From: a virus
Strand: one strand, 5' to 3'
Length of the DNA stretch: 32,207 nt
Virus genome (UHGV): UHGV-1442421
In this document: positions 20,238 through 32,207 of the stretch, piece after piece
Layout of the letters: each line of letters opens with the position of its first letter
Position numbering within the stretch: the first letter of the stretch is position 1
Program-made: the position numbers and the translations under genes
Notes under the pieces: model-generated
Seen by the model: only the letters and a program-made list of their open reading frames with translations
What the model was told of the DNA's origin: nothing
The model's database searches: none

Positions 20238-21614
20238 TCATACGTCAGCCCCTTGTGCATATCGTCTGCCACGCGCAGCAGGTGCATTTGATGCTGTGCA
20301 AATCTGTCTGGCTTCATCCTGGTCACATGCAACAAAGTGTCCGTTGCAGAACCGCTGGTAAACCGTACCAAGCGAGCCAAAACGGTTTTTCGTCACGATG
20401 ATTTCAGCAAATGGCGCGGCGCTACTGTTCTCGTCATATACCGCTTCCCGATAGAGCATGATGATTGAGTCTGCGTCCTGTTCAATGCTTCCAGAATCAC
20501 GCAAATCTGCGTTTGTCGGGCGTTTGTTTGGTCGCTTCTCAACATCGCGCGAAAGCTGACTCAGGGAGATAACAGGCGTTTTCAGGTCTTTCGCCATCGC
20601 CTTCAGGCTTCCGGAGATGTGAGCAATTGCGAGGTCGTTGCGGTCTGCTTTCGGCTTCTCAATCAGGCCAAGATAATCCGCCATGATGAGTGACAGGTTT
20701 GGATTTTCCTGTTTGTGCCGTTCTGCGATTGAGCGTATTTCTTCGACCGATAACCGCGAGGCATCGACTACCCATACATCCAAATCTGCAAGCTGACTCA
20801 TGCCGTTAGCAACACGCGCCCAGCCTTCGTCATCCATCGATGCAGGATTTCGCAGCACGCTAACCGACATCCTCCCGGCGTTGGCGATGCTTCGCTCTGC
20901 AATCTGCAATGCGCTCATTTCCATCGAGAAAATCAACACTCCGCGCCGAACGTCAGAACCAGGGATAACGCGGCTTGCAACGCCTTCGGCAATCTTCAGC
21001 GCCAGCTCGGTTTTCCCCATACCAGGACGAGCGGCGATAATCACCAGGTCTTCCGCGTTCATCCCCCCGGTGATAGCGTCAAGTTCTTCGATTCCGGTCT
21101 TCAGGGTATCGGACTCTTCTCCGTTCCTCAGACGCCTGTCAAGCGTGTCAGTGTAGTCAGTAATGATTTCCCCTAACCGTACAGGTTTAACCTCGTCACG
21201 GGGCTTTCTGATGGCTGAAAGACGCTTTACAAGCTCATCCATCGCCTGACTCGATGCGTCGATGGTTCCGCTCTGAATTGGTTCACGCATTTCATCCATG
21301 ATTTCCAGCACCAGACGGCGGTGATAGTTATCCGCGACCATTCTGGCATATCCCTTCAGGTTTGCGGCGCTCGGGCAGTTTTTGCTGGTCATCAGGATTG
21401 ACGTGAAATGCTCCTCTCCGCACGCCTCGGCAACCATCAGCGCGTCGATTAGGTTTCTGTTTCTCGCCTGCTTACGGATAACTTCGAAGGCTTTCCTGTA
21501 GAGCGGAATTGAAAACGCTTCCGGCTCCAGCGTTGCCAGAACGTCACTGGCGGTTGGTGTTAATCCACCAATCAGCAGACCACCGATAACGCTCGCTTCG
21601 ATATCCTGTTTCAT
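20238..21614 (-). CDS. Replicative DNA helicase, DnaB family (P22 gp12-like, 458 aa)
   Basis: Walker [10 protein letters not shown] and DnaB-like C-terminal motifs; ATGA overlap with the O-like gene. Confidence 0.9.
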
Positions 21615-22441
21615 GCAATCCCCCTGTCTGCAAACTTCCCTTCCCGTACTCCCGTTAACGAATCTTCCCTCAGCAGGTAATCAAAATCAGCTGTCCAGCC
21701 CGTGTCGTTGTCTCCGAAGTAAAACGGCTTGGCCTGATGCACAAACGCCCTGACATACGCTCTGAAACCGTCCACGTTTGGCGTTTTCAGTTGCGGGATG
21801 ATTTTCTTCAGGCGACGTTTGCGTTTCTCGTTGACCGCAACAGCGTGCGGCAGTCTGTCGCCGACTTCGGTGTTGTAGGCGTTCAGGAAAGATTCGTAGT
21901 CGATGCGTTCTGCCTTGCGACGTTCAGGTTTAACCTGCCCATCGTCGCCCCCGTTAGGGGGTAAGGGGGTATTTGTATTTATTGTCTTTTGTATATTGTC
22001 TTTTGTGTTTGACTGATTCGGTAAATTGCTTTTTACCGATTTGGTGAAGGTTTGTTTTACCGAATTGGTAAATGTTTTACCGAATCCGTTAACTTTCGTT
22101 TTCCACTCGGAAATGTTTGTATTCATACCAACTTGACGCCCCACCTGAATGAGAACTCCCATTCTGATAAGCTCGTTTTTGGCGGTAGAGCATTTGGTTG
22201 GTGCCATGCCAGTGAGTTCAGCGAACTGTTCGTTTCCGATCCAATCTATTTTTTTGTTGTAACCGTATGTCTTGCGCCACACAGCCATAACAATCAGTAA
22301 CTGATGTAGAGTAAGTCCAGAAAGCATGGCGGCTTCTAACAGTGTGTTTGCAGTCCGAGTGTAGCCATCTTCGAGTTCTGCCACGCGATGCTCCACGACC
22401 TCCAGTTGAGGCCTGTAATCAGCTAACTTAACGACGCCCAT
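21611..22441 (-). CDS. Replication initiator, lambda O N-terminal-domain type (P22 gene 18-like, 276 aa)
   Basis: N-terminus resembles lambda O (LEDGYTR..N.LLEA); central low-complexity region encoded by the iterons; SD AGGAG. Confidence 0.8.
21947..22090. other. Probable origin of replication inside the initiator gene: AT-rich tract plus four iteron copies
   Basis: AT-rich 21969..22010; TTTTACCGAAT-like repeats at 22030, 22054, 22074 and inverted at 22015; palindrome CCCCCGTTAGGGGG at 21947. Confidence 0.55.
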
Positions 22442-23021: not shown

Positions 23022-24374
<1,353 letters not shown>

Positions 24375-24566: not shown

Positions 24567-24676
24567 AGCATTCAAAGCAGAAGGCTTTGAGTAGCGCGAA
24601 ATGCAGCTGCAAGACAGCAACCGTGGAGATAAGCATCACGGCGCGTTACTCAAAGCTAACTGACAGGAGAATCCAG

Positions 24677-25009
24677 ATGGATGCACAAACACGCCGCCGC
24701 GAACGTCGCGCAGAGAAACAGGCTCAATGGAAAGCAGCAAATCCCCTGTTGGTTGGGGTAAGCGCAAAACCAGTTAACCGCCCTATTCTCTCGCTGAATC
24801 GCAAACCGAAATCACGAGTAGAAAGCGCACTGAATCCGATAGACCTTACAGTGCTGGCTGAATACCACGAACAGATTGAAAGCAACCTGCAACGTATTGA
24901 ACGCAAGAATCAGCGCACATGGTACAGCAAGCCACGCAGTGAAATGGGTGTGACATGCTCAGGCCGCCAGAAGCGACGCGGAAAATCAATTCCAGCTTAT
25001 TACGATTGA
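24677..25009 (+). CDS. N: Antiterminator N, lambda type (110 aa from ATG at 24677)
   Basis: Arg-rich N-terminus MDAQTRRRERRAEKQAQWKAANPLLVGV recognised as lambda N; SD AGGAGA; ORF-track upstream extension rejected. Confidence 0.9.
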   Translation: MDAQTRRRERRAEKQAQWKAANPLLVGVSAKPVNRPILSLNRKPKSRVESALNPIDLTVLAEYHEQIESNLQRIERKNQRTWYSKPRSEMGVTCSGRQKRRGKSIPAYYD

Positions 25010-26151: not shown

Positions 26152-26286
26152 ATGATGCACTTTCAGCTCGCGGGTAGCGGCGTCATGTCCGCTTTCTACC
26201 CGCACGAATCTGAATTATCACGCCGAGTTAAACAATTAATCAGAGCAGCAAAGAAACAACTGGAGGCGTTATGCGCAATGAAATAG
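26152..26286 (+). CDS. cIII: CIII-like protease inhibitor (44 aa from ATG at 26152)
   Basis: SD AGGAG; amphipathic core ESELSRRVKQLIRAAKKQL resembles lambda/HK022 CIII; ORF-track upstream extension rejected. Confidence 0.55.
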   Translation: MMHFQLAGSGVMSAFYPHESELSRRVKQLIRAAKKQLEALCAMK

Positions 26287-26423
26287 CCATTAATCACCAG
26301 ATGCTTCGTGCTGCACAGAACAAAGCAGTAATAGCCAGATTTATTGGTGATTCAAAAATGTGGCTTGAAGCAAATAAAGCGATGAAATCAGCTATCAACC
26401 TTCCGTGGTATCGCAGGAAATGA
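26271..26423 (+). CDS. Kil-like small protein (50 aa; below ORF-track cutoff)
   Basis: SD GGAGG; motif IARFIGDSKMW similar to lambda Kil as I recall it; overlaps cIII stop. Confidence 0.4.
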   Translation: MRNEIAINHQMLRAAQNKAVIARFIGDSKMWLEANKAMKSAINLPWYRRK

Positions 26424-26590: not shown

Positions 26591-26679
26591 AGGTGTTCGC
26601 GTATTTTTAAATGCGGCAAAGACTGAAGTATTAAATCAGCGTTATTTCCTTGGGCCATGTCCATTCTGAGAACAATCAT

Positions 26680-27285
26680 ATGAGCAAAGAATTTTACGCA
26701 AGACTGGCAGCTATTCAGGAGAATCTGAACGCGCCAAAGAATCAATACAACTCATTCGGCAAATATAAATACAGAAGCTGCGAAGACATTCTTGAGGGTG
26801 TTAAGCCGTTACTGAATGGCCTGTTTTTATCAATCAGCGATGAAGTTGTGTTGATTGGTGATCGGTATTACGTGAAAGCCACGGCAACTATTACCGATGG
26901 CGAAAACAGCCATACGGCAACCGCTCTTGCACGAGAGGAAGAAAGCAAGAAAGGAATGGATTCTGCACAAGTTACGGGAGCTACAAGCTCTTATGCACGC
27001 AAGTATTGCCTCAATGGTTTGTTCGGCATTGATGATGCGAAAGATGCAGATACAGACGAGCATAAACATCAGCAGAACGCAGCAGCAAAGCAATCAAAAC
27101 CATCACCTACACCTGAACAGGTTCTAAAAGCATTCACTGACGCAGCAATGCAGAAAAACACCGTAGAAGAGCTTAAACAGGCGTTCGCCAAAGCGTGGAA
27201 GATGCTCGAAGGCACACCGGAGCAGCACAAAGCGCAGGACGTTTACAACATCAGACGAGACGAATTAGAAGGAGCTGCTGCTTAA
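26680..27285 (+). CDS. erf: Single-strand annealing recombinase, ERF family (201 aa from ATG at 26680)
   Basis: N-terminus MSKEFYARL...YNSFGKYKYRSCEDILEGVKPLL recognised as P22 Erf-like; ORF-track TTG extension rejected. Confidence 0.75.
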   Translation: MSKEFYARLAAIQENLNAPKNQYNSFGKYKYRSCEDILEGVKPLLNGLFLSISDEVVLIGDRYYVKATATITDGENSHTATALAREEESKKGMDSAQVTGATSSYARKYCLNGLFGIDDAKDADTDEHKHQQNAAAKQSKPSPTPEQVLKAFTDAAMQKNTVEELKQAFAKAWKMLEGTPEQHKAQDVYNIRRDELEGAAA

Positions 27286-27668
27286 TGGCACATTCGATTA
27301 CTGTAAGACTAAACAAGCCCGCAAGAGAGTTTCAGGCCGGGGAAAATATCGGATTCAACATCCGTGCTGGCGTTCAGTATTACGATCGCCAGACAAAAAA
27401 GAAAGAATGGACAAACTACAGCGCCGTTGTATTTGCCAAGCCGGGAGCGCAAGCGGATTACTACCGTAGTGTTCTTGTTGAAGGTGGCATTGTGGAAATT
27501 ACCGGAGAAAACATCAGGGTTGATGTTTATCAGGGGCAAAATGGTCAATCAATCACTCTTGAATTACTGAATGCAAAGATTGGATTTGCAGCTTCAGGAA
27601 ATGGCCCGCAGCAGCAAAGTAGTAACCAGCAGAACACTCCTGTATACGACGATTCCATCCCATTCTGA
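27285..27668 (+). CDS. ssb: Phage single-stranded DNA-binding protein with acidic C-terminal tail ending DDSIPF (127 aa)
   Basis: Start overlaps erf stop (TAATG); C-terminus matches the SSB D-D-D-I-P-F interaction tail. Confidence 0.65.
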   Translation: MAHSITVRLNKPAREFQAGENIGFNIRAGVQYYDRQTKKKEWTNYSAVVFAKPGAQADYYRSVLVEGGIVEITGENIRVDVYQGQNGQSITLELLNAKIGFAASGNGPQQQSSNQQNTPVYDDSIPF

Positions 27669-27691
27669 TTTAGAAAAATAAGGATTTAATT

Positions 27692-27988
27692 ATGCCAGCG
27701 CCTCTGTATGGTGCGGATGACGCGCGCCGCTGTTCCGGCAATTCCGTATCGGAGGTGCTGGAAAATATCAAGAATAATCTCGACGCGTTTCTTGCTCTGC
27801 CACCAGAAACAAAAGCAGAACGGAAGTACCGACGCGATATACAACTCGCAGAAAAACAGGAAAAAGACCGAATAAACGAAACATCAATCCGACCATTCCG
27901 CAAAGCCACATATACCCACTTCCCTGAATATATCGACCCGCGCCTGCGTAATTACCGCTCACGCTATGGCGCTATCAGTAATGACTGA
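27692..27988 (+). CDS. Hypothetical protein (98 aa)
   Basis: ORF track; SD AAGGA 7 nt upstream. Confidence 0.5.
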
Positions 27989-27998
27989 GGAATTTACC

Positions 27999-28166
27999 AT
28001 GAGAGGACTTGCATACAATCCCGGCATTCTTCCGGCAGAAATGATTATTCGCCAACGCGTAAAGCCAATGCCATCGAGAGAGGAATTGCTTAAGAGAAAT
28101 TCTTTTCCATCAGTAAATCAAAACAAATATCTGAATGCGATGTGGCGTAAAGGAGGCAACCAGTGA
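27999..28166 (+). CDS. Hypothetical small protein (55 aa from ATG at 27999)
   Basis: ORF-track frame 27966..28166; internal ATG preferred because of SD GAGG. Confidence 0.35.
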
Positions 28167-28807
28167 ATAACCGCTTTTACATGATGTGCTTGCGTGAAAC
28201 TGTGGGTAATAACGCCTCATTCCATTGCCATAACGGCAATGGTTACAGTTCTGATATCGATCGCGCTCATGTTTACACGCTGGAAGAAGCCCAAAAAGCC
28301 TGGAATTGTGGACGAGATATCGATCAGCCTGTTTGCGCTGATAGCGTGGATGCAATGGCTGTGTGGCACGTTGATTGCCAGTACATCCCCACAGAAAGCC
28401 TGATTGAGTCAGATTGCACTGCGTATGTGGCCTACAAAAAAGGTAGCTGGAACGGCAACGATGTTTACTGGCTTCAACACGGTGGATTGCCAACAGATGA
28501 CTTCAGTAAAGCGACCATCTTTAGCGTCGCCAACAAAAACGAACCAGGAATAGTTTGGTTGCCATTTTCCATTGCTGATGCAGCAAAGCGCCGGACGTTC
28601 AATATCAATAACTTTAACCGCAGAACAATGGTTCAGGGCGCAGGTTTGGTCATGCCTGACTGGTTGAAAGAGCAGAACAGAAGAAAGAAGTCGCGAAGCG
28701 GGAAGGTGCGTTGGAATTGTCCGCATTGCGGAAAAATCACCTGGCAGTACAGCCCATATGATTTTGAAGGCTGTAGTGATTACAACTGTGAGGGATGGCG
28801 AGTATGA
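28163..28807 (+). CDS. Hypothetical Cys-rich protein with C-terminal zinc-ribbon-like motif (214 aa; GTG start)
   Basis: GTG at 28163 with AGGAGG 6 nt upstream; C-terminal CPHCG...CSDYNC. Confidence 0.55.
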
Positions 28808-29178
28808 CAATTGACTATCAGGCACTACGTGAGGCGGCGGAACGTGCAATTCCAGCAATGGAACGCCTATTAATGTTGCCAGCTGATGATGATTTGTTAA
28901 GTGAACAGGAACTTAAAGATTACGGTGTGGATATTGATGCGCTCAACGCCTTCAAATTTCTTGCCGGACCAGAAACCGTGCTGGCACTACTGGGTGAACT
29001 GGAAGCTCAAAGCAAACGCATTGCAGAACTGGAGGAGCGGGAAATACTGCTCCCGGAACGTAACAGCATGCTTCATCGAACAGATTTTCACGAGGATTAC
29101 CAAACGGTAATGGCATACAAAGTTTCTGAAGTCATCGCTGCAATCCGCGCTGCTGGTATTCGCATCAAAGGAGAGTGA
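28804..29178 (+). CDS. Hypothetical protein with central coiled-coil (124 aa from ATG at 28804)
   Basis: ATGA overlap with previous stop; heptad-like segment LLGELEAQSKRIAELEEREILL. Confidence 0.45.
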   Translation: MTIDYQALREAAERAIPAMERLLMLPADDDLLSEQELKDYGVDIDALNAFKFLAGPETVLALLGELEAQSKRIAELEEREILLPERNSMLHRTDFHEDYQTVMAYKVSEVIAAIRAAGIRIKGE

Positions 29179-29179
29179 T

Positions 29180-29833
29180 ATGAGCGCTATAACCAAAGAG
29201 CGACTGCAATGGCTGGCTAACATTTCTGGCCGCGATGACATTGACGATATAGACGGCGGTGAAATTCGTGAACTGGCACGGATTGCTCTGGCATCGCTGG
29301 AAGCAAAACCAATAGGTGCATTCCACATTGCAGAACAGCAAGTTGACGGCACAAGTGACTATCTCAAGGATGGAGAATGGCCTATTGATAATGGGATTAT
29401 TGAAGTCTACGCCGCTCCGCCAGTACTGGTAGTACCTGCCGCATTACCTGAGAACGACGATGAGGACGGGCATGACATTGATTATCTTGAGCCATCTGAA
29501 GTTTACGCGCTTGGGCGAACAGCTGGCTGGAACGCCTGCCGCGCCGCCATGCTTCATGATAAATCCGAACAACCACAAAACGCACAACAAAATATTCCGG
29601 AAAATATTCCCGGTGGCAACTCTCCGGTAACTCCGGATGGTTGGATCTCCCGCTTCGAAGAAATGCCGGATCCGTCTAGCGAAAGGCGCGTGTGTGCGTT
29701 CACACCTACCAACCATGAAGATATGCGCTACCGCTTCGTGCCCGCCTCGCTCTTTAAGACAGTTTGCAGAGACGCGACCCACTGGTTTTATATGCTTCCG
29801 CCAGTAGGGCGGGAGGAGGTTGCAGGTGGCTGA
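29180..29833 (+). CDS. Hypothetical acidic protein (217 aa)
   Basis: ORF track; SD AAAGGAGAG 4-5 nt upstream. Confidence 0.55.
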   Translation: MSAITKERLQWLANISGRDDIDDIDGGEIRELARIALASLEAKPIGAFHIAEQQVDGTSDYLKDGEWPIDNGIIEVYAAPPVLVVPAALPENDDEDGHDIDYLEPSEVYALGRTAGWNACRAAMLHDKSEQPQNAQQNIPENIPGGNSPVTPDGWISRFEEMPDPSSERRVCAFTPTNHEDMRYRFVPASLFKTVCRDATHWFYMLPPVGREEVAGG

Positions 29834-30110
29834 TCTACAGTTGGCCGTTAATGGCGAATACTTTGACGCGATGAAGCGCGGCGAGAAAACCGAGGAGTAT
29901 CGCTTGTGTAATGACTACTGGAATAAGCGAATTATGTTCCGGGAGTATGACCGCCTGATTATCACAAAGGGATATCCGAAGCGCGACGATTCCAGCCGCA
30001 GAATTGACGTCCCGTATGACGGATATGAAATCAAGACAATCACACATCCACACTTTGGCGATAAACTGGTAAAGGTGTTCGCGATAAAGGTAAATATCGA
30101 CAATGAATAA
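29826..30110 (+). CDS. Hypothetical protein, possibly ASCH/PUA-like fold (94 aa from GTG at 29826)
   Basis: GTG with GGGAGGAGG 6 nt upstream; fold assignment is a weak recollection from the N-terminal motif. Confidence 0.4.
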   Translation: MADLQLAVNGEYFDAMKRGEKTEEYRLCNDYWNKRIMFREYDRLIITKGYPKRDDSSRRIDVPYDGYEIKTITHPHFGDKLVKVFAIKVNIDNE

Positions 30111-30182
30111 CAATCCTCGCACTCGCGGGGATTTCTTTTATCTGAACTCGCTACGGCGAGTTTTGTTTTATGGAGATGATAA

Positions 30183-30350
30183 ATGCACTTCCGAGTCACA
30201 GGTGAATGGAATGGAGAGCCATTCGACAGGGTTATCGAAGCAGAGGACATCAACGACTGCTATGACCACTGGATGCTATGGGCGCAGATAGCACATGCAG
30301 ACGTAACCAATATTCGAATTGAAGAACTGAAAGAACACCAAGCCGCCTGA
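30183..30350 (+). CDS. Hypothetical small protein (55 aa; below ORF-track cutoff)
   Basis: Hand-translated MHFRVTGEWNGEPFDRVIEAEDINDCYDHWMLWAQIAHADVTNIRIEELKEHQAA; SD GGAGATGA; ends in terminator. Confidence 0.45.
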   Translation: MHFRVTGEWNGEPFDRVIEAEDINDCYDHWMLWAQIAHADVTNIRIEELKEHQAA

Positions 30351-30364
30351 TGGCGGTTTTTTCT
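30341..30364 (+). terminator. Intrinsic terminator upstream of xis
   Basis: GCCGCC-TGAT-GGCGGT followed by TTTTTT. Confidence 0.5.
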
Positions 30365-30389
30365 TGCGTGTAATTGCGGAGACTTTGCG

Positions 30390-30608
30390 ATGTACTTGAC
30401 ACTTCAGGAGTGGAACGCTCGCCAGCGACGCCCAAGAAGCCTTGAAACAGTTCGTCGATGGGTGCGCGAATGCAGGATATTCCCTCCTCCGGTTAAGGAT
30501 GGAAGAGAGTATCTGTTCCACGAATCAGCGGTAAAGGTTGACTTAAATCGACCAGTAACAGGTAGCCTTTTGAAGAGGATCAGAAATGGGAAGAAGGCGA
30601 AGTCATGA
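30390..30608 (+). CDS. xis: Excisionase Xis, lambda/HK022 type (72 aa)
   Basis: Translation recognised as lambda Xis (MYLTLQEWNARQRRPRSLETVRRWVRECRIFPPPVKDGREY...). Confidence 0.9.
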   Translation: MYLTLQEWNARQRRPRSLETVRRWVRECRIFPPPVKDGREYLFHESAVKVDLNRPVTGSLLKRIRNGKKAKS

Positions 30609-31659
30609 GCGCCGGGATTTACCCCCTAACCTTTATATAAGAAACAATGGATATTACTGCTACAGGGACCCAAGGACGGGTAAAGAGTTCGGATTAGGCA
30701 GAGACAGAAGGATAGCAGTTTCAGAGGCTATTCAGGCCAATATTGAGTTACTATCCGAGAACAGGCGTGAGTCACTGATAGACAGAATTAAAGGCGCTGA
30801 CGTAATCACTCTTCATGCGTGGCTTGACCGATATGAAACAATCCTCAGCGAGAGGGGTATCAGGCCGAAAACTCTACTCGACTACGCCAGCAAAATCAGG
30901 GCAATCCGAAGAAAATTGCCGGACAAACCGCTCGCTGACATATCAACGAAAGAGGTGGCAGCAATGCTAAACACCTACGTAGCAGAAGGTAAAGCGGCTT
31001 CCGCAAAATTAATCAGGTCAACCCTTGTTGACGTTTTTCGTGAGGCAATAGCCGAGGGGCATGTGGCAACGAATCCGGTAACAGCAACCCGCACAGCAAA
31101 GTCAGAAGTAAGGCGCTCAAGGCTGACAGCTAATGAGTATGTCGCGATTTACCATGCAGCCGAACCTCTCCCAATCTGGCTGAGGCTGGCAATGGATTTG
31201 GCTGTCGTTACAGGGCAGAGAGTGGGCGATTTGTGCAGAATGAAATGGTCAGACATAAACGACAACCATCTTCACATTGAACAGAGTAAAACAGGGGCTA
31301 AGCTCGCCATTCCGCTGACGCTAACGATTGACGCGCTCAATATCTCATTGGCTGATACACTACAGAAATGCAGGGAGACCAGCAGCAGTGAAACAATAAT
31401 TGCATCAACGCATCACGAACCACTTTCCCCGAAAACAGTATCGAAGTATTTTACAAAAGCGAGAAATGCATCTGGACTCTCATTTGATGGAGACCCGCCA
31501 ACATTCCATGAACTGCGTAGCCTGTCGGCGAGGCTATACCTGAACCAGATTGGCGATAAGTTTGCTCAACGTCTTCTCGGGCATAAATCAGATTCAATGG
31601 CGGCGCGGTATAGGGACAGCACAGGCGAGATCTGGGACAAAATTGAAATCAACAAATGA
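30586..31659 (+). CDS. int: Tyrosine integrase, lambda Int family (357 aa)
   Basis: N-terminal arm-binding region as in lambda Int; catalytic motifs HELRSL...LLGH...Y; overlaps xis end. Confidence 0.9.
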   Translation: MGRRRSHERRDLPPNLYIRNNGYYCYRDPRTGKEFGLGRDRRIAVSEAIQANIELLSENRRESLIDRIKGADVITLHAWLDRYETILSERGIRPKTLLDYASKIRAIRRKLPDKPLADISTKEVAAMLNTYVAEGKAASAKLIRSTLVDVFREAIAEGHVATNPVTATRTAKSEVRRSRLTANEYVAIYHAAEPLPIWLRLAMDLAVVTGQRVGDLCRMKWSDINDNHLHIEQSKTGAKLAIPLTLTIDALNISLADTLQKCRETSSSETIIASTHHEPLSPKTVSKYFTKARNASGLSFDGDPPTFHELRSLSARLYLNQIGDKFAQRLLGHKSDSMAARYRDSTGEIWDKIEINK

Positions 31660-32002
31660 CTTTATTTTGACCAACAATGACCTGCTCATGGTAATTTATT
31701 GATAATTAAAGGAATTTTAAATATGAAACTTACCTTATTTAAGGCCCCTTCCTCGGGAGGGGCTTTCCCGTTTCAGCATCCGGCTGAAATCTGCGGCTTA
31801 CCTCCTTTCGCCCTGTATGCAGTCTATCGCTAACGCGTAGATAAAATAGTTTCCTGTGTTATTACTGGATGCGTGCTCGCAAATGTGCCCGCCATTCAGA
31901 CGATTCCCGATAGTGTTTCATAATTCCTCCATTTTTCTCCCTTATTGGCTGGCTACACTAGTATCATTCCGCGAAACGTTTCAGGAAGAGAAACTCTTAA
32001 CG

Positions 32003-32207
32003 ATGAAAGGCAGTTATAAATCCCGTTGGGTAATCGTAATCGTGGTGGTTATCGCCGCCATCGCCGCATTCTGGTTCTGGCAAGGCCGCAATGACTCCCA
32101 GAGTGCAGCCCCAGGGGCGACGAAACAAGCGCAGCAATCGCCAGCGGGTGGTCGCCGTGGTATGCGTTCCGGCCCATTAGCCCCGGTTCAGGCGGCGACC
32201 GCCGTAG
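32003..32207 (+). CDS. mdtA: Host gene, 5' part: MdtA-like RND efflux membrane-fusion protein (first 68 codons; continues beyond window)
   Basis: N-terminal signal-anchor MKGSYKSRWVIVIVVVIAAIAAFWFWQ recognised from memory as E. coli MdtA. Confidence 0.55.
   Translation, partial: MKGSYKSRWVIVIVVVIAAIAAFWFWQGRNDSQSAAPGATKQAQQSPAGGRRGMRSGPLAPVQAATAV

Follow-up and report, generated by a model that had tools for sequence, protein, structure and literature searches.

Putative promoter-distal segment of the pL operon in a P22-like Escherichia coli prophage: abc2 followed by six mosaic accessory genes

The early-left operon of phage P22 includes the genes abc2, orf56, eaE, orf45, eaF, eaD, eaI, eaA, eaG, eaC and xis in this order. 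Mechanism and structure of its anti-RecBCD protein Abc2 have been described, including the engagement of host PpiB through residue P68 (PMC9836394), and the Abc2-RecBCD complex is represented by PDB 8b1t and 8b1u. Together with a strand-annealing protein and an SSB, such an anti-RecBCD protein defines a Rec module (PMC12315714). The exo-xis stretch of phage lambda is likewise early, N-dependent and non-essential, and it is also located between recombination genes and xis. [quoted passage not shown] Other exo-xis genes change prophage induction (PMC7093339, PMC3824215, PMC10789677). For DUF2737, DUF551, DUF5405, the PHROG families, Upf87.6, phage ASCH proteins and the P22 ea genes, no functional characterisation was found in the literature searched.

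Here, we describe a stretch of comparable position in the virus genome UHGV-1442421, the whole 32,207 nucleotides of which are referred to as the window. The prophage ends near position 31732 and is flanked by mdtA. Our best explanation, to which we assign a probability of roughly 0.8, is that the window carries a P22-like E. coli prophage with HK022-type xis-int adjoining mdtA, and that positions 27692-30364 form the promoter-distal, non-essential part of its N-antiterminated pL operon, composed of abc2 and six mosaic accessory genes. The features on which this reading is based are collected in Table 1.

Table 1. Features of the early region and of the prophage end in the window (positions in nt).
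Feature	Position	Strand	Product	Evidence or remark
cI-like repressor	23341-23973			same-strand operon context
lambda-type N	24674-25009			PF11438, E 1.4e-26
cIII	26152-26286			upstream operon context
Kil	26271-26423			upstream operon context
erf	26650-27285	+		Pfam ERF, E 2.4e-44
ssb-like gene	27285-27668	+		phrog_44 SSB, E 2.9e-27; C-terminal DDSIPF tail
O1, abc2 by homology (anti-RecBCD protein 2)	27692-27988	+	98 aa	PF11043, phrog_656, PDB 8b1t
O2, DUF2737 protein	27999-28166	+	55 aa	PF10930, phrog_1117
O3, phrog_2457 protein (P7 Upf87.6)	28163-28807	+	214 aa	GTG start
O4, short Ead/Ea22-family protein	28804-29178	+	124 aa	PF13935, phrog_250 and phrog_1667
O5, EaA-like protein	29180-29833	+	217 aa	phrog_60 and phrog_660
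O6, predicted small ASCH (PUA-like) fold protein	29826-30110	+	94 aa	GTG start; phrog_625
Two tandem GC-rich hairpins	30112-30133 and 30144-30163	+		U-tract after each; fill the O6-O7 gap
O7, acidic phrog_676 protein	30183-30350	+	55 aa	phrog_676
Terminal hairpin followed by T6	hairpin 30340-30359, element 30340-30365	+		intrinsic-terminator-like; contains the O7 stop codon
xis	30390-30608	+		Pfam Exc, E 3.9e-41; 100% identical to HK022
int	30586-31659	+		95.8% identical to HK022

The seven closely packed, co-oriented ORFs reported in the preliminary description (98, 55, 214, 124, 217, 94 and 55 aa) are all present on the + strand at 27692-30350, with a coding fraction of 0.97 and distances of +10, -4, -4, +1, -8, +72 and +39 nt between successive genes. 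Their starts were set from Shine-Dalgarno spacing and the lengths of annotated homologues. The start of O4 overlaps the stop of O3 as ATGA, and the GTG start of O6 overlaps the stop of O5. Since every ORF matches a PHROG family (E 1e-37 to 1e-119) and the exact sequence of each protein is already present in public collections, the seven ORFs are genes and not chance occurrences. ORFs on the minus strand of this region gave no Pfam matches, an Rfam scan of the whole window gave zero matches, and an NCBIfam scan of O1-O7 yielded nothing. Strong acidity marks three of the products, the net charges being -11 (O4), -20 (O5) and -8 (O7).

O1 matches the Pfam family PF11043 (Anti-RecBCD_p2) over residues 1-98 of 98 (E 9.2e-43, 144.8 bits, cut-off 25), as well as phrog_656 (E 2e-49) and, again over residues 1-98, P22 Abc2 in PDB 8b1t chain A (E 1e-38). 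Judged by this homology, O1 is Abc2, the P22-type anti-RecBCD protein. It is encoded by the final gene of an erf-ssb-abc2 Rec module, and we assign it to this module and not to the ea region. Full-length homology to the Abc2 of the P22 complex structures includes P68, with retention of the I-R-P68-F motif. The P22-class protein is matched exactly at residues 1-23 and 64-98, and all 24 substitutions fall within residues 24-63, packed in the helical region sitting on RecC. Because 24 of 40 positions thus differ in the RecC-contacting helices from the structurally studied P22 Abc2, identical target binding of the window protein is an assumption. O1 represents the second of two allele classes: window-type relatives (80-90% identity) occur in 78 phage records and those of the P22 class (60-80%) in 144; P22 abc2 itself is 69% identical. 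By analogy with P22 Abc2, O1 would bind the RecC subunit so that RecBCD no longer responds to Chi, and the redirected enzyme would make single-stranded DNA for Erf-mediated recombination while phage DNA is spared destruction.

The six genes that follow belong to large phage families, and for them the earlier label of unknown function still applies, as it does not for O1. O2 matches PF10930 (DUF2737; E 1.7e-31, 108.3 bits, cut-off 25), is 78% identical to P22 orf56, has a pI of 11 and falls into a 90% identity cluster of 370 members. The mechanically defined ORF begins at 27966 and encodes 66 aa; as the DUF2737 match starts at its residue 12 and a GAGGA lies ahead of the ATG at 27999, this ATG was taken as the start. 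At the other end of the cluster, O7 matches phrog_676 (E 1.2e-39), its 90% cluster comprises 1,501 members, and it is 92-96% identical in HK022, CUS-3, APC_JM3.2, NRG857C and Br_167. Except in P22, it is the last or second-last gene before xis or the attachment site in all relatives examined. A resemblance of O7 to P22 EaG was considered and rejected, the tblastn match being to an unannotated remnant downstream of eaG. Searches of PDB sequences gave no significant relatives of O2 and no relative of O7.

The coiled-coil protein seen earlier is O4, which proved to be a member of the Ead/Ea22 family. Residues 5-95 match positions 2-92 of the 139-position profile PF13935 (70.8 bits, cut-off 27) and some 30 residues extend beyond this match, so that only the N-terminal segment and the coiled-coil part of the family are represented. 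The protein is acidic and a rare allele, with only four members in its 90% cluster. Its search against PDB sequences, a set presumed to contain the entry for the lambda Ea22 C-terminal domain, gave no significant match, and nothing therefore ties O4 to that domain.

O5 (pI 4.4) is also a rare allele and consists of a conserved N-terminal part of about 165 aa and a divergent, DUF551-like C-terminal domain. It has more than 6,891 homologues, most of them named "DUF551 domain-containing", and aligns with P22 EaA over residues 1-82 (35% identity) and 146-175 (53%). The Pfam DUF551 profile (PF04448) did not match O5 at E values up to 0.1, and a precomputed PF04448 match is also absent from its closest full-length relatives. 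When the C-terminus was compared with the DUF551 cassettes of paralogues sharing the N-terminal part, hhalign gave a probability of 94.9% (E 4e-8, 53 columns), a score due in part to a shared flanking motif. The DUF551 framework DGWIS..MP and THW..LP is retained. Within the family, a constant N-terminal part is combined with hypervariable DUF551 cassettes. PDB sequences contained no significant relatives of O5.

O6 belongs to phrog_625 (E 1.7e-48), and 631 of its homologues are named ASCH by NCBI. Its AF2 model (pLDDT 81) was compared with the PDB by Foldseek, and PUA-like families made up nearly all of the top 16 entries. ASCH-type structures led the list, i.e. 3iuw (E 0.013, probability 1.00), 2z0t, 1xne, YqfB (9kyh) and ZmASCH (5gus, TMq 0.60), with EVE and YTH domains ranking after them. 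The Pfam ASCH profile (PF04266) did not match O6 itself; sub-threshold matches were present in nine of 33 close homologues (best E 0.029), and a PDB sequence search found no significant relatives. The ASCH-like fold suspected in the preliminary description is thereby upheld by the structural comparison and the weak Pfam matches of homologues, and O6 is predicted to adopt an ASCH/PUA-like beta-barrel fold. Support for this assignment is moderate because the Foldseek E-values are weak.

O3 is the one member of the cluster that stands out. Its predicted model (pLDDT 94) shows a pair of similar alpha/beta modules together with a basic linker and, at the C-terminus, a four-Cys zinc ribbon that is invariant in the family. 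No resembling fold was found for the model among solved structures, and the O3 profile gave only a marginal resemblance to an eL43-type zinc ribbon in the PDB (E 0.04). The internal duplication is weakly supported (E 0.002). The family comprises about 844 clusters at 50% identity and occurs in prophages and P1-like phage-plasmids of hosts including Enterobacterales, Yersinia, Acinetobacter and a methanotroph. In Br_167 the counterpart of O3 is 98% identical, and about 98% nucleotide identity is shared with Upf87.6 of P7, where an overlapping Ead/Ea22-like gene (Upf88.3) follows directly, in the same arrangement as O3-O4. The P7 genes are located in the C1-controlled operon of a phage-plasmid, whereas those of the window lie in a lambdoid pL operon. 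A P7 note naming the O3 homologue a "putative tyrosine protein phosphatase" was rejected, since a CX5R motif is missing from O3 and C22 is not maintained across the family. DUF7446, which takes the place of O3 in a related prophage, was likewise rejected as a relative (hhalign probability 0.4%). In every case the O3-family gene is a stand-alone member of an early operon; no conserved functional partner was found in distant prophages, where the genes upstream of it in Yersinia and Methyloprofundus are unrelated, and longer O3 relatives, inspected for domain fusions, showed no Pfam domains.

The preliminary description had stated that none of the ORFs could be assigned apart from the coiled-coil protein and the possible ASCH fold. 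This no longer holds, with O1 being Abc2, O2 the counterpart of P22 orf56, O5 EaA-like and DUF551-like, and O3 and O7 members of large PHROG families. As to whether these are common, characterised Ea-family proteins, common they are; characterised is Abc2 only, and Ea22 at the phenotypic level only.

The terminator placed just before xis was recovered as the terminal hairpin of Table 1. Its RNA fold has a free energy of -16.1 kcal/mol (z -3.0). P22, HK022 and CUS-3 carry it with 100% conservation, and in the P22 record the corresponding position bears a terminator annotation. By sequence, this terminator is a real feature. It also constitutes a mosaic junction to the int-xis module, near-identical blocks elsewhere ending at 30359-30377. 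The tandem hairpins between O6 and O7, absent from the preliminary description, are more stable (-26.3 kcal/mol, z -5.1), and none of 200 shuffled sequences was equally stable. Several further terminator-like hairpins are spread along the operon. A simple scan for sigma-70-like promoters on the + strand, which weak or activator-dependent promoters could escape, saw none in 27692-30364, and the distance from the second gap hairpin to the start of O7 is too short for a promoter.

The cluster lies between recombination genes and xis, at the place of the P22 ea region and of lambda exo-xis, in agreement with the lambdoid ea-region position proposed before. Position and orientation are those of the P22 genes, and an Ead/Ea22-family gene is common to both. 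In this stretch P22 differs in lacking O3, the ASCH gene (no tblastn match) and an intact O7; a remnant between eaG and eaC is 100% identical to the last 60 nt of O7 and the terminator hairpin. The window lacks homologues of eaE, eaF, eaI, eaG and eaC and has no abc1, carries an ssb-like gene in place of the P22 genes abc1 and arf, and possesses int/xis of HK022 type instead of P22 type. Lambda shares the Ead/Ea22 coiled-coil protein, whereas its recombination module is Exo/Beta/Gam instead of Erf/SSB/Abc2; apart from Ead/Ea22, no family of lambda exo-xis (orf60a, orf63, orf61, orf73, ea8.5) was named by Pfam, PHROG or NCBIfam scans of O1-O7.

The backbone order in HK022, CUS-3, APC_JM3.2, NRG857C and Br_167 is abc2, DUF2737, a variable slot, Ea22-like, EaA/DUF551, ASCH, phrog_676 and xis; in HK022, CUS-3, HK620-type phages (hka genes), NRG857C and Br_167, erf and an ssb-like gene precede this common backbone, as in the window. 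O2, O6 and O7 are 92-100% identical in HK022, CUS-3, HK620-type phages and E. coli prophages, whereas their Abc2 allele differs (75%) and the O4 and O5 alleles of the window are rare. The slot after DUF2737, occupied by O3 in the window, holds a 69-aa gene, an Sf6 gp22-like gene, DUF7446 or DUF5405 in these relatives. Other E. coli assemblies contain the whole block at 99.4-99.9% identity, and the exact block is joined elsewhere to three recombinase modules and three int/xis types, which indicates that the genes are modular and independently exchangeable. Among complete E. coli genomes and phage records, none contained a contiguous match to at least 80% of the 2.85-kb query. The locus is thus mosaic across relatives and, as had been suggested, variable.

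Within the pL operon reading, O2-O7 would be translated from one polycistronic early transcript, and coupled translation is suggested by the overlap of stops with starts. By analogy with lambda and P22, the three hairpin terminators would be expected to be read through only in the presence of N, so that O1-O7 would be made early after infection or induction and remain silent in the lysogen. Each of O2-O7 would act as an independent single-gene module, and their likeliest role, as far as we can infer, would be modulation of the host or of the choice between lysis and lysogeny, or antagonism of host defences.

More specific roles are less probable. One is that O2-O7 form a dedicated counter-defence cluster in which each protein inhibits one host defence system. 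The cluster adjoins a proven anti-RecBCD gene, counter-defence genes often share accessory regions, and Silas et al. take the abc1/abc2 region as an example of such clustering (10.1101/2023.04.06.535777). The strong acidity of O4, O5 and O7 would fit as well, hypervariable DUF551 cassettes on a constant O5 N-terminus would suit a target-tracking diversification, and ASCH/PUA-like folds typically bind modified nucleosides or RNA. Nevertheless, the literature searched contained no characterised anti-defence protein homologous to O2-O7, the part of the supplementary text of the Silas screen that was covered did not contain the sequences of O2, O3, O6 and O7, and the sole experimental data for these families, those on Ea22, favour lysis-lysogeny control over immunity evasion. 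We regard this possibility as doubtful.

The same tentative standing is given to the idea that O2-O7 are developmental modulators like those of lambda exo-xis, biasing lysis-lysogeny and induction through host regulatory proteins. It agrees with the shared site between recombination genes and xis and with the membership of O4 in the Ead/Ea22 family, given the pro-lysogenic effect of Ea22 in lambda and Stx phages (PMC7093339). However, the Ead/Ea22 N-terminal and coiled-coil part is all that was recognised of the conserved lambda cassette, no C-terminal domain of the lambda Ea22 type was recognised in O4 and, according to published work, the C-terminal domains vary between variants and the mechanism is unknown.

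The accessory tail of an N-antiterminated pL operon remains our preferred reading for the stretch. That the cluster is instead a moron-like defence island, expressed from the prophage to exclude superinfecting phages and protect the lysogen, is very improbable: the locus does vary between related prophages, terminator-like hairpins flank O7 in a frequent moron arrangement and lambdoid prophages have defence genes in other variable slots, but none of the seven proteins matched PADLOC-DB v2 component profiles at E values up to 0.01, no promoter-like site was seen on the + strand and none fits before O7, every gene runs in the direction of pL and is tightly coupled to it, and O1 is a counter-defence and recombination factor and not a defence gene. 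The exclusion genes considered in the preliminary description are thus not borne out by PADLOC matches or internal promoters. Location in the pL operon, lack of own promoters and absence of defence-system matches make early lytic factors for host takeover, counter-defence or modulation of lysis-lysogeny the most likely products, and not exclusion genes expressed from the prophage.

Overall, the region is ordinary; it is already present in public assemblies and is not a new system. Its annotation is corrected in that the first ORF, formerly "unknown", is the well-understood RecBCD modulator Abc2 of the recombination module, with the remainder being an accessory tail of the mosaic kind that is standard in lambdoid early-left operons. 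The importance of this is modest; the tail comprises six very common families of enterobacterial prophages, with hundreds to thousands of database members, that are still without known function. With its confident model, apparently unrepresented fold and conserved zinc ribbon, O3 would be a sensible object of structural and functional study. It may perhaps, although the odds are against it, represent a structurally new and widespread class of phage early protein, and it could be a nucleic-acid-binding or enzyme-like factor for host takeover or counter-defence of a kind so far undescribed. As a smaller possibility, the two classes of Abc2 alleles, like the hypervariable DUF551 cassettes, may record arms races against host targets.

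The cluster of seven plus-strand ORFs between the ssb-like gene and xis (O1-O7) is the promoter-distal part of the N-antiterminated early-left operon of a prophage. On the plus strand, genes for a cI-like repressor, N, cIII, Kil, Erf and the ssb-like protein are followed by the seven ORFs, xis and int. The HK022 homology ends near 31732 and is flanked by the mdtA region of E. coli, and the sizes of upstream minus-strand ORFs agree with those of the P22 terminase, portal, scaffold and coat genes. From this gene order, the mdtA flank and the P22-sized ORFs, the window is therefore assigned to a P22-like E. coli prophage. The ssb-like gene sits where P22 has abc1, and its product carries the C-terminal acidic tail typical of SSB proteins; Pfam SSB was not detected in it.

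Features of the early-left operon and public assembly loci with near-identical blocks (window positions)
Feature	Position	Strand	Description
cI-like repressor	23341-23973	+	
lambda-type N protein	24674-25009	+	PF11438, E 1.4e-26
cIII	26152-26286	+	
Kil	26271-26423	+	
erf	26650-27285	+	PF04404
ssb-like gene	27285-27668	+	phrog_44, DDSIPF tail
O1	27692-27988	+	98 aa
O2	27999-28166	+	55 aa
O3	28163-28807	+	214 aa, GTG start
O4	28804-29178	+	124 aa
O5	29180-29833	+	217 aa
O6	29826-30110	+	94 aa, GTG start
O7	30183-30350	+	55 aa
L012	26600-30359		identity 99.95%
L010	26625-30362		identity 99.4%
L013	28070-30367		identity 99.8%

The xis and int genes are of HK022 type, with identities to HK022 of 100% and 96%, respectively. 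Despite this similarity of the integrase (30586-31732), the prophage adjoins mdtA (flank 31733-32207), a site at which an integrase occurs in 85 complete E. coli genomes, and the equally similar NRG857C prophage adjoins torS; att-site specificity may thus have shifted between very similar integrases. Short tandem repeats with periods of 14 and 24 at 21972-22077, inside a minus-strand ORF of 276 aa (21611-22441), resemble the iterons of an origin lying in a replication-initiator gene.

Start codons were chosen by Shine-Dalgarno spacing and to agree in length with annotated homologues; the ORF lengths then read from the sequence and its ORF list are exactly those of the preliminary description. 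Successive gene spacings from O1 onward are +10, -4, -4, +1, -8, +72 and +39 nt, and 97% of the cluster interval is coding. Each of the seven ORFs matches a PHROG phage protein family (E 1e-37 to 1e-119); minus-strand ORFs of the region gave no matches, and Rfam families are absent. The terminator previously reported at the cluster end was recovered as a hairpin at 30340-30359 followed by T6 and overlapping the O7 stop codon (RNA fold -16.1 kcal/mol, z -3.0). A further pair of strong hairpin/U-tract sites in tandem (30112-30133 and 30144-30163; -26.3 kcal/mol, z -5.1), missing from that description, fills the 72-nt gap between O6 and O7, so that O7, which has no promoter of its own, is bracketed by terminator-like sites.

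All seven ORFs had initially been placed in the ea region, which does not hold for O1. This protein is Abc2 (full-length match to PF11043, E 9e-43; E 1e-38 to P22 Abc2 as solved in complex with RecBCD, PDB 8b1t), which is proposed to co-opt RecBCD for Erf-dependent recombination (PMC9836394). Since a 2025 survey defines the lambdoid Rec module as strand-annealing protein, SSB and anti-RecBCD protein (PMC12315714), O1 belongs to the recombination module. We infer from homology that it binds RecC. All 24 differences from the Abc2 proteins of P22, HK022, NRG857C and others fall within residues 24-63 (27761-27880), part of the helical region lying on RecC, with no change in residues 1-23 and 64-98, P68 among them. 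Relatives with 80-90% identity are present in 78 phage records, versus 144 records for 60-80%, and the 90% cluster of O1 has 136 members. O1 belongs to a second, already sequenced Abc2 allele class; the two classes show no obvious host split.

Among complete E. coli genomes and phage records, none carries at least 80% of 27600-30450 at a single location; the entire block was found again in draft and metagenomic assemblies. There, its neighbouring recombinase module varies (Erf with the ssb-like gene, Rad52-type with SSB, or AAA ATPase with DUF669), as does the excision/integration module (HK022-type, TorI-type, or AlpA with a P4-type integrase). The final ~60 nt of O7 and the terminal hairpin (30290-30365) have 100% identity to P22, HK022 and CUS-3. 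As the module junction lies at this hairpin, where near-identical blocks of other assemblies end, the segment resembles a conserved junction at which the accessory and int-xis modules recombine. P22 retains it, unannotated, as a remnant that lies between eaG and eaC; the homologous hairpin is annotated in the P22 record as terminator of the antisense aI RNA.

Related phages have a common backbone of abc2, DUF2737, a variable slot, Ea22-like, EaA/DUF551, ASCH, a 55-aa gene and xis, and the slot held here by O3 contains different genes. Among the closest known arrangements are the abc2/ea region of P22 and the left operons of HK022, HK620 and CUS-3, whereas the lambda exo-xis region is more loosely alike and of its cassette has only Ea22 in common with the window. 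The locus is already known, since all seven exact protein sequences are public and annotated and loci of this kind have long been described (PMC8022706, PMC7093339, PMC12315714).

O2 is a DUF2737 protein (PF10930, E 2e-31) with 78% identity to P22 orf56. O4, a short member of the Ead/Ea22 family (PF13935, 70.8 bits, residues 5-95), gave no C-terminal-domain relative in a sequence search of the PDB. The acidic O7 (phrog_676) has counterparts with 92-96% identity in HK022, CUS-3, APC_JM3.2, NRG857C and Br_167 and no solved structural relative. O6 is named ASCH by NCBI; Pfam did not detect ASCH in O6 itself and gave weak ASCH matches for 9 of 33 close homologues. In its AlphaFold model (pLDDT 81), nearly all of the top 16 PDB matches are PUA-like families, headed by ASCH-type entries (3iuw, 2z0t, 1xne, YqfB and ZmASCH; TM 0.5-0.6), and the ASCH-like fold suspected earlier is moderately supported.

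The O5 family is very large, with more than 6,891 matches named "DUF551 domain-containing" or "Eaa". The N-terminus of O5 is similar to P22 EaA, and its last 55 residues retain the DGWIS..MP and THW..LP framework of hypervariable DUF551 cassettes (hhalign probability 94.9%); the Pfam DUF551 model did not detect it. Across the family (window 29650-29833; proteins P0121-P0240), a constant N-terminal part of ~165 aa is combined with many unrelated-looking C-terminal cassettes framed by DGWIS..MP and THWMPLPEPP, and one variant (P0131) carries a Cys-rich domain in place of DUF551. This pattern resembles a swappable target-recognition domain.

Gene identities, operon context, tight coupling and modular recurrence are matters of observation. 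By analogy with lambda and P22 biology, transcription would start from pL and read through the hairpins in an N-dependent manner, which would lead to early expression after infection or induction and to silence in the lysogen. O2-O7 are most likely independent early host-directed factors. Roles in counter-defence or, with the same tentative standing, in modulating the lysis-lysogeny decision are possible. It is very improbable that they are exclusion genes expressed from the prophage; neither promoter-like sites on the plus strand (27692-30364) nor defence-system matches were found in the cluster.

O3 is the least understood gene of the cluster. It belongs to phrog_2457 and has no match in Pfam, NCBIfam or PADLOC. 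Its homologues, ~215 aa long, are present in Enterobacterales, Yersinia, Acinetobacter and one Methyloprofundus genome, frequently on contigs the size of phage-plasmids, and an exhaustive profile search gave 844 clusters at 50% identity. The invariant positions are four cysteines (C186, C189, C204 and C209) and ~17 others. AlphaFold confidently predicts (pLDDT 93.7, pTM 0.82) a structure with two alpha/beta modules that resemble each other, a helix and linker of basic character and a zinc ribbon; hhalign supports the internal duplication weakly (E 0.002). The O3 family is large, and its fold is apparently unrepresented. In distant prophages, the homologue likewise lies in the early-left operon; no conserved neighbour was found there, and longer relatives showed no recognisable fused domain. 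In phage-plasmid P7 (locus L014, 4012-5330), the near-identical Upf87.6 is followed by the overlapping Ead/Ea22-like Upf88.3, matching the O3-O4 arrangement, and these two genes have therefore been exchanged as a pair between lambdoid prophages and phage-plasmids of the P1 type. The alignment does not support the P7 annotation of the O3 homologue as a "putative tyrosine phosphatase". O3 is thus the residual point of interest in an otherwise known locus.
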